Of a stretch of 64,000 bases of DNA, positions 5,027 through 39,549 are shown piece after piece. The number at the start of each line of letters is the position of its first letter. Positions within the stretch are counted from its first letter, which is position 1. A program made the translations under genes and the position numbers. The notes below the pieces were generated by a model. That model was given only the letters and a program-made list of their open reading frames with translations, searched no databases and was not told the DNA's origin. Origin of the DNA: an uncultured Acidimicrobiia bacterium (GTDB lineage Bacteria > Actinomycetota > Acidimicrobiia > IMCC26256 > JAENVU01); NCBI GenBank assembly GCA_963820025.1, contig CAWFYL010000005.1, forward strand, positions 19,757-83,756, given 5' to 3'.

Positions 5027-5699
5027 TCGACCGTCCCACCCATCCGTCGACGTCGTAGCCGTAGTGCTCCCAGTACCCGGGCTCCACCTTCTCGGTCAGC
5101 TCGATCGCCTCGAGCCACTTGCAGGACTTGTAGCCGTACATCGGCGCGACGTAGAGCCGCACCGGCCCGCCGTGCTCGGACGAGATGTCCCCGCCCTCCA
5201 TCCGATAGGCGACGATCACGTCGTTGCGACGGCCCTGGCTCAACGTGAGGCTCTCGGTGTAGGTGCCGTCGAAGCTCTTGAACCGGATCGCCCCCGCCTC
5301 GGGCTTCACGCCGGCCCGGTCGAGGAGGTCGGCCAGGCGCACGCCCTCCCAGGCCACGTCGTGGACGCGCCAGCCGGTGACGCACTGGAAGTCGCGGGTC
5401 ATCCGGGTCGGCGGCAGCGCGCGGAGCTCGTCGTAGGTGAGCGTGTACGGCGCGTCGACGAGCCCGCCGACCTTCAGCCGGTACGCGTCCTTGCTCTTGC
5501 CCGGCAGGTCGCCGGTGACGGTGTAGATCCGGAACCGGCCGATCGGCAGGAACCCCGACAGGCCGGTGCCGTCCTTCGAGACGACCGGGGCGACGGTCTT
5601 CTCGAGCCAGTCCTGGGCCTTCGCGCCCCACAGCACGCCGACTGCCCCCACGCCCAGCACTCCGAGGAACACCCGGCGTCCGATCGGCGTGCCATCCAT
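5001..5699 (-). CDS. Molybdopterin-dependent oxidoreductase (sulfite oxidase/MsrP-like), Tat signal
   Basis: GRRVFL twin-arginine signal, DFQCVTGW, EHGGPVRL, YGYKSCKWL, PGYWE. Confidence 0.9.
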   Translation of the reverse strand: MDGTPIGRRVFLGVLGVGAVGVLWGAKAQDWLEKTVAPVVSKDGTGLSGFLPIGRFRIYTVTGDLPGKSKDAYRLKVGGLVDAPYTLTYDELRALPPTRMTRDFQCVTGWRVHDVAWEGVRLADLLDRAGVKPEAGAIRFKSFDGTYTESLTLSQGRRNDVIVAYRMEGGDISSEHGGPVRLYVAPMYGYKSCKWLEAIELTEKVEPGYWEHYGYDVDGWVGRSNGRDDDAT

Positions 5700-5784
5700 A
5701 CGCGACCCAGCGTACGACCGCCCACCCGCCCCCCACCCGCGCCGATCCCTCAACATTCTCGAAACTCCCCGACCCGCCTCTCCG

Positions 5785-5831
5785 TTCTCGGCACGCTGAA
5801 CCACACAGGATGTGGTTGAGCGTGCCGAGAA
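5785..5831. repeat. 47-bp palindromic REP-like element, copy 1
   Basis: TTCTCGGCACGCT-G-AACCACA-cagga-TGTGGTT-G-AGCGTGCCGAGAA. Near-identical copies at 6645 and 39006. Confidence 0.9.
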
Positions 5832-5883
5832 TCCCAGGGGTTCGTGGCTCGTAGCTGTCCCAGCACGGCGAGAGGCTCAGACC

Positions 5884-6636
5884 ATGGATGAGCACAGGGC
5901 CGTGGAGCTGGCGGCGCGCCAACACGCATTGATCACCTACGGCCAGGCACGTCGCCTGGGCTTGTCTGCACGTCAGATCGAGCACCAGTTGGTCCGTCGA
6001 TTCCTCGCCTCGGTCCACGAAGGCGTCTACCGGTTCACAAGCGCTGCGCCATCGCGGAACCAGCGGATGCTTGCGGCATGCCTCGCGGTCGGGCGACCGT
6101 CGGCGGCCTCGCACCGATCGGCAGCCACGGTTCACGGGATCTGGTCGGTGTCGGACGATATGGTCGAGATCACCGTCGGACGGGACCGGTCGCCCGACCT
6201 TGTCGGCGTGACGGTGCACCGCATCGCGGACCTCTCCGATCGTTGGATCGTCGAAGTCGACGGGGTGCCCGTGACGACGTCGGCGCGCACCCTGGTGGAC
6301 CTCGGGGCGGTGCTCCCGCTCGGCTCGGTCGGCCGCGCCCTCGACCGGGCCATTGGTCGGAAGCTCGTGACGCTCGTGGAGGTACGCGCCGCGCTTGACG
6401 CGGTCGCGCGCAAGGGACGCGCCGGAGTGGGAACGATCCGCGGTCTGCTCGATGAGCGGGGCGGTCTGGTCCAAGCGACCAGCGTGCTCGAGGCGCGCAT
6501 GGCTGTGCTCCTCCGGATCCACGGCGTGCCGATGCCGGTGCGGGAGCACACGGTGCTCGACGAGCACGGTCAGTTCGTTGGCCGGGTCGACTTTGCCTAC
6601 CCGGAGCTGCGCTACGCGATCGAGGTCGACGGCTAA
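5884..6636 (+). CDS. AbiEi-N / DUF559-type protein, C-terminally truncated
   Basis: LAARQHALIT, VHEGVY, ASHRSAATVHG, VTTSARTLVDL, SVLEARM, GRVDFAYPELRYAIEVDG, then stop. The usual H...D..R...GW tail is missing. Confidence 0.8.
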   Translation: MDEHRAVELAARQHALITYGQARRLGLSARQIEHQLVRRFLASVHEGVYRFTSAAPSRNQRMLAACLAVGRPSAASHRSAATVHGIWSVSDDMVEITVGRDRSPDLVGVTVHRIADLSDRWIVEVDGVPVTTSARTLVDLGAVLPLGSVGRALDRAIGRKLVTLVEVRAALDAVARKGRAGVGTIRGLLDERGGLVQATSVLEARMAVLLRIHGVPMPVREHTVLDEHGQFVGRVDFAYPELRYAIEVDG

Positions 6637-6644
6637 CCGCCAGC

Positions 6645-6691
6645 TTCTCGGCACGTTGAACCACACCACATGTGGTTGAGCGTGCCGAGAA
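6645..6691. repeat. 47-bp palindromic REP-like element, copy 2
   Basis: TTCTCGGCACGTTGAACCACA-ccaca-TGTGGTTGAGCGTGCCGAGAA, 8 bp after the stop of the AbiEi/DUF559 gene. Confidence 0.9.
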
Positions 6692-6719
6692 CAGGGCGGA
6701 ACCGGGCGGGAACGGAATC

Positions 6720-8111
6720 TCAGGCGAGGGTGAGGACCTCGGTGAAGCCTTCGTCGAGGCAGCGGAGGAAGGCGTCCGAGTCGGGGACGGCGACGGAGTC
6801 GACGTTGACCCCGATGCAGCAGGTCCCGCAGCTGGAGAGCAGCGTGACGTTGACCGCGGCGCCGGCGAGGGGAGCGAACGCGTACATCCGCTCGAGCCGC
6901 GCTCCGGCGGAGAAGATCTCGAACGGCGCGCCGGGCACGTTGCTCGTCACGAAGTCCGCGCCCTTCAGCATCGAGCCGAACAACGCGGTCGTGATCGTCG
7001 TCGGGAGCTGGTTCAGGATCCCGGCGAGCGCGTCGGTCAGGTGGACCGCGGGCTCGGCCCGGATCTCGCGGGTGAGCCGGCCCACCGCGACGATCCGTTC
7101 CGCGGGGTCCTTGATCGTGACCGGGACGAGGAATCGGGCCGGCGTGAAGTGGTTCCCGCCCAGCGCGGCGCCCTCGGCCCGGAGGTTGATCGGCATCACC
7201 ATTCTCAGCTCGTCGACGCTCACCCCGTGGAGGTCGTGGTAGCGACGCATCCCGCCGAGCACCGACGCGACGAAGGAGTCGTTGAGCGACCCGCCGACGG
7301 TCTTGGCCGCCTGCTTGAGCGAATCGAGTGGGACGTCGAGCGTGCTGAGCTGCCGGGCGAGCGTGCGGGCGCGCATGATCGGCGAGTGGGGGTCCGTGGC
7401 GGGCTGCAGGAACCGGACGACGGACCCGGCGATGCGCCAGGCCTCCTGCAGCGTGTGCACCGGGTCGTCGAGGATCGCCCGGGTCACGCCGACCGAGTCG
7501 ATGACACCGCGGCGGGCGATGCCGAGCGCGCGGCGCTGGTTGTGTCCGAGCGCGCTGAGCACGAGGTCCATCGGCCCGAAGGCGGGAACCGCGTCCACCC
7601 GGTCCGGGGGCGGGACCGGATCGGGTTCGCGCTCGAAGTCGAACAGCATCAGCAGGAGCTTCATCCCGCCGACGCCGTCGGTCATCGAGTGGTGGACCTT
7701 CAGGATCATCGCCGACCGGTCGCCTTCGAGCCCCTCGACGACCGTGTACTCCCACAGCGGGCGCGCCCGGTCGAAGCCCGCCATCGCGGCGGTGCGGGCG
7801 AGGTCGAGCACCGCGTCCAGCGACGGCTCGCACGCCCGCACCCGGCGCAGGTGGTAGCCGAGGTCGAAGTTCGCGTCGCCCGACCACTGCGGCGGGCCCA
7901 TGTGCAGCAAGGGCGTCGCGATGCGCTGGCGCAACCGGGGGATGAGCCAGGTCCCGCGCTCGATCTTGTCGACGAGGCGGTCCCAGTCCGGCGCGCGGTC
8001 GAGCAGCAGCACGGTGACGATCGTCGACCGCAGCAGCGGGTCCTTCTCGATGTTCCACATGAGCGCGTCGGAGTCGCTCATGTGGGTCTCGAAGCGCTCG
8101 TCCCCGCTCAT
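6720..8111 (-). CDS. Wax ester synthase/diacylglycerol acyltransferase (WS/DGAT)
   Basis: HHSMTDG catalytic motif, FDRARPLWE, TSNVPG. Confidence 0.92.
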   Translation of the reverse strand: MSGDERFETHMSDSDALMWNIEKDPLLRSTIVTVLLLDRAPDWDRLVDKIERGTWLIPRLRQRIATPLLHMGPPQWSGDANFDLGYHLRRVRACEPSLDAVLDLARTAAMAGFDRARPLWEYTVVEGLEGDRSAMILKVHHSMTDGVGGMKLLLMLFDFEREPDPVPPPDRVDAVPAFGPMDLVLSALGHNQRRALGIARRGVIDSVGVTRAILDDPVHTLQEAWRIAGSVVRFLQPATDPHSPIMRARTLARQLSTLDVPLDSLKQAAKTVGGSLNDSFVASVLGGMRRYHDLHGVSVDELRMVMPINLRAEGAALGGNHFTPARFLVPVTIKDPAERIVAVGRLTREIRAEPAVHLTDALAGILNQLPTTITTALFGSMLKGADFVTSNVPGAPFEIFSAGARLERMYAFAPLAGAAVNVTLLSSCGTCCIGVNVDSVAVPDSDAFLRCLDEGFTEVLTLA

Positions 8112-21185: not shown

Positions 21186-22076
21186 GTGGCGCTGCTGACC
21201 CCGGCCTCGATCACCGAGCTGCTCGAACGCCACGACCTCCGGCCCAGCCGCGCGCTCGGCCAGCATTTCCTCGCTGATCCGAACACCGCCCGCCGGATCG
21301 TGCGGCTCGCGGGTGTCGAGGCAGGCGACCACGTGCTGGAGATCGGTCCCGGCGTCGGGTCGCTCACCATCGCGCTCGCGGAGGCCGGCGCGTCGGTGAC
21401 CGCGCTCGAGCTCGACCGCCACATCCTGCCGGCGCTCGCCGAGGTCGTCGCACCGTGGCCGGACGTGCGCGCCGTCCAGGGTGATGCGCTCGAGGTGGAT
21501 CTCGCGTCACTGCTGACCCCCCACAACCGAACTTGCGTCGAAACAGCCGCGTCAGGCGGCTCTTCTGACGCAAGTTCGGGGGAGGGCGGGTGGAAGCTCG
21601 TCGCCAACCTCCCGTACAACGTGGCGACACCACTCGTCGCGCGCGTGCTGGAGACCGCGCCCTCGGTCGGCTCGCTGCTCGTGATGGTGCAACGAGAGGT
21701 CGGTGAGCGCCTCGCTGCCGGGCCGGGCGGCCGCGACTACGGCGCGATCTCGGTCAAGGTCGCGTACTACGGCCGTCCCCGGTTGGTGGGGGCGGTGCCG
21801 CGTACGGTCTTCCTGCCGCCACCCAACGTCGACTCGGTGCTGGTGCGGATCGACCGTCACGCGGCTCCGCCGGTGGAGGTGCCCTCCCCGGACGCACTGT
21901 TCCGTCTGGTGCGCGCGGGGTTCGGCCAACGCCGCAAGATGCTGCGTCGGTCGCTGCAGCCCGAGCTCGCCGACCGCACGCTCGCGGTGCTCGACGCGGC
22001 AGGTGTGGACCCGCGCCAACGGGCCGAGGCGCTCGACCTCGACGCGTGGGCCGCGGTCGCGCGGGCTGCGGCGTGA
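21186..22076 (+). CDS. rsmA: 16S rRNA adenine dimethyltransferase
   Basis: LGQHFL, EIGPGVGSLT, ANLPYN, MVQREV, RRKMLR. Confidence 0.95.
   Translation: MALLTPASITELLERHDLRPSRALGQHFLADPNTARRIVRLAGVEAGDHVLEIGPGVGSLTIALAEAGASVTALELDRHILPALAEVVAPWPDVRAVQGDALEVDLASLLTPHNRTCVETAASGGSSDASSGEGGWKLVANLPYNVATPLVARVLETAPSVGSLLVMVQREVGERLAAGPGGRDYGAISVKVAYYGRPRLVGAVPRTVFLPPPNVDSVLVRIDRHAAPPVEVPSPDALFRLVRAGFGQRRKMLRRSLQPELADRTLAVLDAAGVDPRQRAEALDLDAWAAVARAAA
21527..21579. repeat. 53-bp palindrome embedded in frame in rsmA
   Basis: Perfect 13-bp arms CCGAACTTGCGTC / GACGCAAGTTCGG around an inner AGCCGC-gtcag-GCGGCT stem. Confidence 0.75.
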
Positions 22077-35637: not shown

Positions 35638-38982
<3,345 letters not shown>

Positions 38983-39005: not shown

Positions 39006-39052
39006 TTCTCGGCACGTTGGACCACACCTGGTGTGGTTGAGCGTGCCGAGAA
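39006..39052. repeat. 47-bp palindromic REP-like element, solo copy 3
   Basis: TTCTCGGCACGTTGGACCACA-cctgg-TGTGGTTGAGCGTGCCGAGAA. Confidence 0.9.
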
Positions 39053-39081: not shown

Positions 39082-39549
39082 GTGCCTGCTTCTGCCGCAG
39101 ACGTCGCCCGGGTGACCGAGCTCCTCGGCCGCCCGCCCCGGGCCGAGTTCGACGTGGTCGTGCGATCCCAGGACGGGGAGCCCGCGGTGATCCGCAACGC
39201 GCCGTTGCTCCTCGACGGCACCCCGATGCCGACGCGCTTCTGGCTCGTGGCACCGCGGCTCGTGCGCAACGTGGCGCGCCTCGAGGCCGACGGCGGCGTG
39301 CGCGCCGCGACCGAGGACGTCGATCCGGACGCGCTCGCCGCCGCGCACGTGGCGTACGCCCGGGAGCGGGACGCGGCGCTCCCTGCGGGTTGGTCGGGCC
39401 CACAGCCCTTCGGCGGCGTGGGCGGCACCCGCCGGGGCGTCAAGTGCCTCCACGCGCACTACGCCTGGTTCCTCGCCGGCGGGCCCGATCCGGTCGGCCG
39501 ATGGGTGGACGAGCGCATCGACGGTGGTGACGCGGCGCGCGGGGCATGA
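39082..39549 (+). CDS. DUF501 domain protein
   Basis: DGTPMPTRFWL, GVGG, VKCLHAH. Conserved eno-divIC-DUF501-ppx order. Confidence 0.9.
   Translation: MPASAADVARVTELLGRPPRAEFDVVVRSQDGEPAVIRNAPLLLDGTPMPTRFWLVAPRLVRNVARLEADGGVRAATEDVDPDALAAAHVAYARERDAALPAGWSGPQPFGGVGGTRRGVKCLHAHYAWFLAGGPDPVGRWVDERIDGGDAARGA

Follow-up and report, generated by a model that had tools for sequence, protein, structure and literature searches.

Putative AbiEi-like/Vsr-like nuclease genes framed by their own palindromic repeat families in an uncultured Acidimicrobiia bacterium and its relatives

Few unexplained features of bacterial genomes are as common as repeats of the repetitive extragenic palindromic (REP) type, for which, to our knowledge, RAYT transposases are the only partner enzymes described so far. 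Here we analysed a 64,000-nucleotide (nt) stretch of DNA, hereafter the window, from an uncultured Acidimicrobiia bacterium (assembly GCA_963820025.1, contig CAWFYL010000005.1), in which a truncated gene for a protein with an AbiEi-like module and the remnant of a Vsr-like nuclease is bracketed by a pair of 47-nt palindromes of one type. Sequence comparisons establish the pairing of such genes with palindromes, the family specificity of this pairing and the conservation of the nuclease motif in the full-length members. In our view, the locus probably belongs, as a decayed member, to a REPtron-like system in which a PD-(D/E)xK nuclease replaces the HUH transposase. A first-pass annotation of the window had proposed such a REPtron-like unit with a nuclease instead of a RAYT. 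The proposal is supported by the pairing and by a search for Y1/RAYT transposases (Pfam Y1_Tnp, PF01797), which gave no match in the genome holding the window (G000; 4.42 Mb in 7 contigs, 70-71% G+C, 98.5% complete), the control being positive in 6 of 14 reference genomes.

Palindrome families and paralogues in the genome holding the window

The two palindromes framing the window gene, which belong to family A, are both on the plus strand. The upstream copy (5785-5831) has 21-nt arms around a 5-nt centre and ends 52 nt ahead of the start codon, and the downstream copy (6645-6691) begins 8 nt past a premature stop. They are direct 47-nt units with a spacing of 860 nt and 91% identity. In the window copies, an arm consists of 13 paired positions, one G/G clash and 7 further paired positions; since the clash is on the plus strand in both flanking copies, these have the same orientation. 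The hairpin described in the first-pass annotation is therefore confirmed, as is its third, solitary copy in the divIC-DUF501 junction, which we located on the plus strand at 39006-39052, inside a 99-nt gap between the DivIC gene (38557-38982) and a DUF501 open reading frame (ORF; 39082-39549). Folding of the three window copies with 20-nt flanks gave -47 to -58 kcal/mol and z scores of -5.7 to -6.7 on either strand (-50 kcal/mol and -6.2 for the upstream copy), and half-sites of the palindrome occur six times in the window against none in 100 shuffles. A search of the whole genome, where a reversed-pattern control gave no hit, detected 26 complete family-A copies and 52 half-sites. If 26 copies were placed uniformly in 4.42 Mb, chance alone would yield about 0.13 pairs spaced by 860 nt or less, so that the double flanking in the window alone is not significant.

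The pair in the window is thus weak by itself, and its recurrence across paralogues is decisive because each paralogue has its own family. A protein search of the genome revealed four more paralogues of the window gene (38-42% identical) and one fragment, and none of these four lies near a family-A copy. All five near-full paralogues are framed by an own, distinct family, four of them strongly and one (F) weakly. Family A (motif TTCTCGGCACG..., 26 copies) frames the window gene with the pair beginning at 5785 and 6645. The other framing pairs belong to family B (motif TTTCGGCGTGA..., 19 copies; C5:134092 and 135076), family C (motif TTTGGCGTCA..., 26 copies; C1:90422 and 91448) and family D (motif GAACTTGCGTC..., 21 copies; C4:281004 and 281998). 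For family F (motif GTTTGTTGCGA...), the motif scan gave no paired copies, and the weak pair (29 nt, 86%) around the C7 paralogue was found by BLAST only. A solo family-D palindrome, of the CCGAACTTGCGTCG...CGACGCAAGTTCGG type, is present in the window at 21529-21577 (no strand assigned), the family-D cassette itself being outside the window, on another contig (G000:C4:281004-282046).

The first-pass annotation had allowed that the repeat might be so abundant, or tied to a RAYT elsewhere, that double flanking would be expected by chance. No RAYT or Y1 transposase was found in this 98.5%-complete genome, as stated above, and same-family pairs less than 1.5 kb apart number only five among families A to D, four of which frame these nuclease paralogues. 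The fifth consists of two family-C palindromes 1443 nt apart (G000:C7:576779-578266) around a gene for a predicted membrane-anchored protein of about 430 amino acids (aa), which is not a paralogue. Each family has about 17-24 gene-less copies in G000, typically just after stop codons. For 21 of the 26 family-A copies, an ORF rich in G+C at third codon positions (GC3) points toward the palindrome and ends at most 80 nt away, and most family-A solos are found in very short intergenic spacers. Rfam gave no match to 5600-6900 up to an E value of 10, and scans of 5650-6800 for sigma-70 promoters and T-tract terminators detected nothing.

Some further features of family A were recorded. In many of its copies in G000 and in two relatives (G004 and G010), the central 5 nt read CCWGG or differ from it by one transition (TCWGG, CCWGA), which may be a coincidence; CCWGG is the sequence context of Vsr action in E. 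coli. Two family-A-like copies of G000 (C3:483150-483196 and C3:836377-836423) have a different inner arm of the GGAGCAC/GTGCTCC type, which resembles sub-types in G010 and G001, and the second of them sits 1.5 kb from the paralogue fragment (C3:837932-838213). As the flanks of the three window copies fold together, we considered whether the outer stems were specific to each copy or whether the palindromes had inserted into hairpins already in place. Both ideas were rejected by a permutation test, in which true family-A partners paired at 7.39 of 14 positions and swapped partners at 7.16; 295 of 2000 permutations gave at least the true value, and copy-specific pairing was equally absent from families B, C and D. 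All copies have a C-rich left flank and a G-rich right flank, which are shared rather than copy-specific.

Protein architecture and framing across the genus and beyond

The window gene (5884-6636, plus strand, 250 aa) was assigned to the AbiEi-like/Vsr-like (DUF559, EDxHD-type) nucleases, and its 3'-truncation recognized, with AbiEi models and an orthologue alignment. Its product matches the PADLOC AbiEi model (E value 9e-30) and scores 20.3 bits with Pfam AbiEi_4, under the cut-off of 25. The ORF terminates at ...AIEVDG, within the nuclease motif. The orthologues of G010 and G006 run about 50 codons further, into the downstream palindrome, and about 150 nt of them, between GACGGnTA and ACCGCCA, are missing from the window copy. 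The complete catalytic motif (E, D, H, D) is consequently absent: the protein ends E-V-D-G, without the His and the Asp, and only the first strands of the Vsr-like fold are left. As judged from this alignment, the window gene is a decayed copy that retains the DNA-binding part and, being 3'-truncated, cannot encode an intact nuclease. Because the deletion of about 150 nt removed the nuclease half, no intact cognate nuclease is left for family A in G000. The AbiEi/DUF559 assignment made in the first-pass annotation hence stands for AbiEi and, in the relatives, for DUF559, of which only a remnant exists here. The gene neighbours are an Oxidored_molyb (MsrP-like molybdopterin oxidoreductase) gene and a WS/DGAT acyltransferase gene; no AbiEii toxin gene adjoins the window gene, as had already been noticed, and the two AbiEii matches in G000 (C5:85184 and C1:456204) adjoin none of the five paralogues.

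The architecture of the full-length protein was examined with an AlphaFold model of the G010 orthologue (mean predicted local distance difference test score, pLDDT, 86.5) and Foldseek comparison. Residues 1 to ~195 of the model resemble the AbiEi antitoxin (6y8q, E value 5e-6) and Rv2827c, and the same part matches AbiEi sequence models with E values of 1e-27 to 1e-30. The last ~100 residues resemble the catalytic domain of I-Bth0305I (3r3p; template modelling score, TM, 0.67 on target), Vsr (1vsr) and the DUF559 protein 3hrl. In a profile search of the sequences of the Protein Data Bank (PDB), 3hrl and 3r3p were the best matches, both weak. Among 10 members scanned with Pfam, AbiEi_4 was found in nine, MTES_1575 in eight and DUF559 in five, the G010 orthologue being among those with DUF559/MTES_1575, and no transposase domain was detected. 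Alignment of 10 members showed R234, D236, E247 and D249 to be invariant and H254 and D263 nearly so, and full-length relatives retain all four motif residues E, D, H and D. Orthologues have 312-313 aa and most listed relatives 303-316 aa. A total of 1072 proteins reached an E value of 1e-10 or lower among 8000 candidates scored. The public names of relatives are 'DUF559', 'very-short-patch-repair endonuclease', 'AbiEi antitoxin', 'regulator of viral defense system' or 'hypothetical'. Many close relatives are on metagenome contigs of 1-2 kb, roughly one cassette long, as would be expected if assemblies break at flanking repeats.

We then compared the flanks of paralogues across the genus. The sample consisted of 11 genomes, all with paralogues, and of 37 loci, mere fragments being left out. 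Since strict hairpin scanners missed many imperfect palindromes, the counts rest on BLAST of the upstream against the downstream flank (350 nt around the gene start versus 330 nt past the alignment end), and a locus was scored as framed when it had a repeat of at least 20 nt with an E value of at most 1e-4. Framing was observed for 25 of the 37 loci versus 2 of 400 random G000 ORFs of 250-400 aa, and the repeats of these two control ORFs are outside the present palindrome families. The framing repeats are positioned about 40-130 nt ahead of the start and just past the full-length stop.

Moreover, the palindrome family follows the protein clade, as inspection of the protein tree indicates. On this tree (36 rows), the palindrome labels need 16 changes, the minimum being 11 and the mean of shuffled labels 26.2, and none of 200 shuffles was as low; clade A has a support of 100/100. 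Two labels had been mis-assigned by regular expressions (G002_C21 is of F type and G001_C5 of C type). This clustering is weaker evidence than the within-genome result because kin share labels. The expectation raised at first pass, that each clade of paralogues might have its own palindrome family, is borne out both in G000, with all five paralogues framed, and in the genus.

Beyond the genus, an alignment-based scan with one genome per species gave 519 confirmed relatives. The best 80 of these 519 were taken, 76 with enough flank, and 30 of the 76 loci were framed by a repeat pair; many of these pairs are plainly palindromic. Most of the carriers are metagenome-assembled genomes with the labels Acidimicrobiia, Thermoleophilia or Solirubrobacterales, as well as Actinomycetes. 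One framed locus comes from a cultured strain, Rhodococcoides kyotonense JCM 23211, whose gene is flanked on both sides by a 73-nt palindrome; seven complete copies (two of them flanking) and two half-sites were found in this genome.

Inheritance and turnover of genes and palindromes

The MsrP-like gene also adjoins an orthologue of the window gene in G010 (68% identity), G006 (65%) and G005 (63%, with a frameshift). Family-A copies frame all three orthologues; the outer 11 nt of these copies are conserved, and each species has inner arms of its own. Thus, at this site (the A site), the gene is present in G000, G010, G005 and G006, and the framing is conserved in these four species. The gene is absent from G002, G003, G007, G008 and G009, and remnants exist in G004, where all that remains is the downstream palindrome with about 130 nt from the 3' end of the gene, and in G001, where part of one arm remains beside a B-like palindrome. 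G008 has an F-like solo at this site and G002 a naive 56-nt spacer; the empty sites that the first-pass annotation had suggested looking for in related genomes were therefore recovered, together with decayed ones at the same locus. The B cassette is syntenic in all five relatives searched, with species-specific palindromes. As the A and B cassettes are at syntenic sites, the genes are vertically inherited and decay in place, as RAYTs do. Judged from this synteny, the cassette genes stay at fixed sites and do not hop. In two cassette-free spacers between the MsrP-like and WS/DGAT genes (L051 in G007 and L052 in G009), we noted short palindromes GTTTCGC...TTCGAAAG (TTTCG...CGAAA). They resemble the outermost bases of the 'GTTTCGG...CCGAAAC' ends and could be collapsed scars or preferred targets.

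The number of family-A copies with exact outer stems varies among the genomes: 29 in G005, 24 in G000, 20 in G010, 14 in G004, 11 in G002, 9 in G006, 6 in G001, one each in G007 and G003, and none in G008 and G009. To follow individual copies, we placed those of two relatives in G000 by both flanks. This was achieved for 12 of the 14 family-A hairpins of G004, where G000 has a type-A copy at nine sites, a variant at one, no copy at two and a large gap at none. For G010, 15 of 18 solos were placed, with four type-A copies, one variant, one remnant, two large gaps and seven sites without a copy. Solo copies, as these alignments indicate, are gained and lost between species. The DivIC/DUF501 site has a copy in G004 (partly deleted), G010 and G001 and none in G006.

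The 13 shared placements (nine G004 and four G010 hairpins, at 12 distinct G000 sites) carry arms of the CCACA/TGTGG type in G000, two being CCCCA variants, and CCGC-type arms at the same sites in G004, G010 and G001, the DivIC/DUF501 site included. Because an identical paired change in about two dozen copies cannot be independent, family A has evolved in concert within the G000 lineage, by conversion or by replacement; which arm type is ancestral is a deduction. A comparison of homogeneity with gene loss for family A was made in three genomes. Inner-arm identity was 0.65 in G004 (n=14), 0.75 in G010 (n=20) and 0.89 in G000 (n=24); G004, which is without an intact A gene, has the most degraded copies. 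Finally, genes of a further family, E, occur in seven relatives but are lacking from G000, where nine imperfect palindrome copies persist.

Comparison with known systems, proposed mechanism and alternatives

The REP/RAYT systems resemble the present one in their dispersed short imperfect intergenic palindromes, in a gene framed by its own family and in the coexistence of several gene-family pairs per genome. They also share a single-copy gene per family, vertical gene inheritance and species-specific families; these properties of REPIN/RAYT systems are described in two reports (10.1101/2022.05.22.493013; PMC8266576). However, the RAYT enzyme is an HUH Y1 transposase, whereas an AbiEi-like module with a Vsr-like PD-(D/E)xK nuclease is found here; since the enzymes are unrelated, the chemistry cannot equal that of RAYTs. 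Moreover, REP/RAYT hosts are mainly Proteobacteria and not Actinomycetota as here, and the flanking pair here is direct or inverted. Given that the defining enzyme is absent and an unrelated nuclease is in its place, the present system is not a member of the REP/RAYT family.

The closest characterised enzyme is I-Bth0305I. This and other EDxHD homing endonucleases share with the present proteins a C-terminal Vsr-like domain, the E-x-D...H...D motif and an N-terminal DNA-binding part. I-Bth0305I is a homodimer with a footprint of about 60 bp and a preference for a pseudopalindrome, features that match the size and symmetry of the palindromes studied here. In contrast, it resides in a group I intron of a phage and cleaves the allele lacking the intron, whereas the genes analysed here are chromosomal, have no intron and are accompanied by dozens of dispersed copies. 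Homing endonuclease genes similarly show presence/absence polymorphism at one site among relatives, but they lie inside and disrupt their own site, while here complete palindromes flank the gene on both sides and there is no intron. The intact sites on both sides and the many dispersed copies therefore argue that this is not a classical homing endonuclease gene. AbiEi of the type IV AbiE toxin-antitoxin systems resembles the first ~195 residues in sequence and fold. However, none of the five genes adjoins an AbiEii partner, and the AbiEi-like part is instead joined to a nuclease domain; as the toxin gene is absent, this is not an AbiE toxin-antitoxin pair.

Vsr and the stand-alone DUF559 proteins (E. 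coli YcjD, N. gonorrhoeae 3hrl) have the same nuclease fold and motif, and VSR, DUF559 and DUF2726 are grouped together in PMC3424549. Unlike the present proteins, Vsr has no AbiEi module and serves as a housekeeping nickase in repair. The ycjD region of E. coli K-12 (L213, 1351030-1351840) has no clear framing pair; a perfect 17-nt inverted repeat covers the start of ycjD, and part of the 3' end of this gene recurs 106 nt downstream as a 39-nt duplicate with 90% identity. With regard to insertion sequences and MITEs, which are characterised by a transposase gene, terminal inverted repeats and a target-site duplication, the proteins gave no transposase domain, filled and empty sites have diverged too far for duplications to be read, and flank complementarity is not specific to individual copies.

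We propose that each lineage consists of an AbiEi-type DNA-binding module fused to a Vsr-like (EDxHD) nuclease and framed by its own family of palindromes of about 45-55 bp. The AbiEi-like module would read the family-specific arms of the cognate palindrome, possibly as a symmetric dimer on duplex DNA, like I-Bth0305I, or on an extruded hairpin, and the Vsr-like domain would nick or cut the palindrome. Repair templated by another family member would then homogenise the family and, now and then, copy the palindrome to a new site. More tentatively, such proteins may represent a large undescribed class of sequence-specific nucleases that maintain and spread their own long palindromic sites by break-induced copying, with the AbiEi-like module and the arms co-evolving; we hold this wider view to be possible, at somewhat less than even chances. 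If true, it would be a second, mechanistically independent invention of the REP/RAYT lifestyle, widespread in Actinomycetota, and a natural library of matched nucleases and long recognition sites, each lineage having a private site of ~45-55 bp. Such matched protein-DNA pairs would be material for studying the evolution of long-site specificity. A second partnership would also explain palindromic repeat families in RAYT-less genomes and give a role to a very large family annotated just as 'DUF559', 'AbiEi antitoxin' or 'hypothetical', and the cultured carrier R. kyotonense JCM 23211 makes the system testable. No description of this gene-palindrome pairing was found in the literature covered, which did not extend to subscription journals and supplements, so that a prior description is possible.

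Several observations count against a REPtron-like system of this kind. Binding, cleavage and mobilisation of the palindromes by the protein are steps that we infer. Twelve of the 37 genus loci failed the strict criterion. Eight of them have shorter matches, seven at the usual positions with the same end motifs and one (L076, 18 nt) spanning the match start, and four have none. Palindromes are lacking in a well-supported clade of three proteins and in a single protein on a long branch. The genomes of one genus are non-independent samples, and 46 of the 76 loci from other taxa are unframed. The two flanking copies are direct repeats at certain loci but inverted ones elsewhere, a variation that no simple mechanism would predict. 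Family A is most homogeneous in G000 among the three genomes compared, despite the truncated gene; this implies either a recent deletion or a homogeneity independent of the cognate nuclease. Exact-outer-stem family-A copies also persist without a detectable cognate gene in G002 (11 copies) and G004 (14 copies). Finally, no fresh insertion with clean borders was found, the filled-versus-empty alignments (nine solos) being too diverged for borders or target duplications.

Other explanations have to be weighed against these difficulties. The mobile unit could be the whole cassette (palindrome-gene-palindrome), free-standing and similar to a homing endonuclease, with the solos as scars of lost cassettes. 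Such an element would account for presence, absence and decay at one site (the naive 56-nt spacer of G002, the remnants in G004 and G001), and the nuclease domain resembles that of a homing endonuclease. However, the cassettes are syntenic across the genus, the protein search finds just five paralogues and one fragment while about 24 family-A solos are without detectable gene remnants, and most solos are squeezed into very short intergenic spacers; we regard this possibility as unlikely. An ordinary REP-like family that landed on both sides of a dispensable orphan antitoxin gene, by coincidence or at a hot spot, would fit the 0.13 chance pairs expected for 26 copies, the same-family pair framing an unrelated membrane-protein gene and the other-family palindromes in the MsrP-WS/DGAT spacer of G001 and G008. 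It is very hard to reconcile with five paralogues having five families in one genome, with 25 of 37 loci versus 2 of 400 controls and with framing conserved in four species at the A site; the paralogue-by-paralogue families in G000 and the genus-wide framing exclude it for practical purposes.

The protein could also be a regulator or a chromosome-organising factor, the upstream palindrome being its operator and the dispersed copies being host-selected sites, such as terminators or mRNA stabilisers, that were not spread by the protein. AbiEi autoregulation offers a precedent, as AbiEi reportedly binds inverted repeats in its own promoter (a finding attributed to Hampton, 2018). The strong AbiEi-like module, the upstream palindrome 40-130 nt ahead of the start at nearly all loci and the 21 of 26 family-A copies within 80 nt past a stop codon are compatible with this role, and the truncated G000 gene retains the binding module in a genome where family A is intact. 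A regulator would not explain why a palindrome lies 3' of the gene as well, why the nuclease residues are conserved or why the families turn over, show concerted changes from one species to another and degenerate in genomes that have lost the gene, and the T-tract signature of terminators is absent from 5650-6800. Pure regulation therefore seems unlikely to us, and the interpretation that we favour is a REPtron-like system in which a nuclease takes the part of the HUH transposase.

As a last observation, the search of sequencing runs listed no RNA run and retrieved five soil-metagenome runs with 5-9% of the sampled words.

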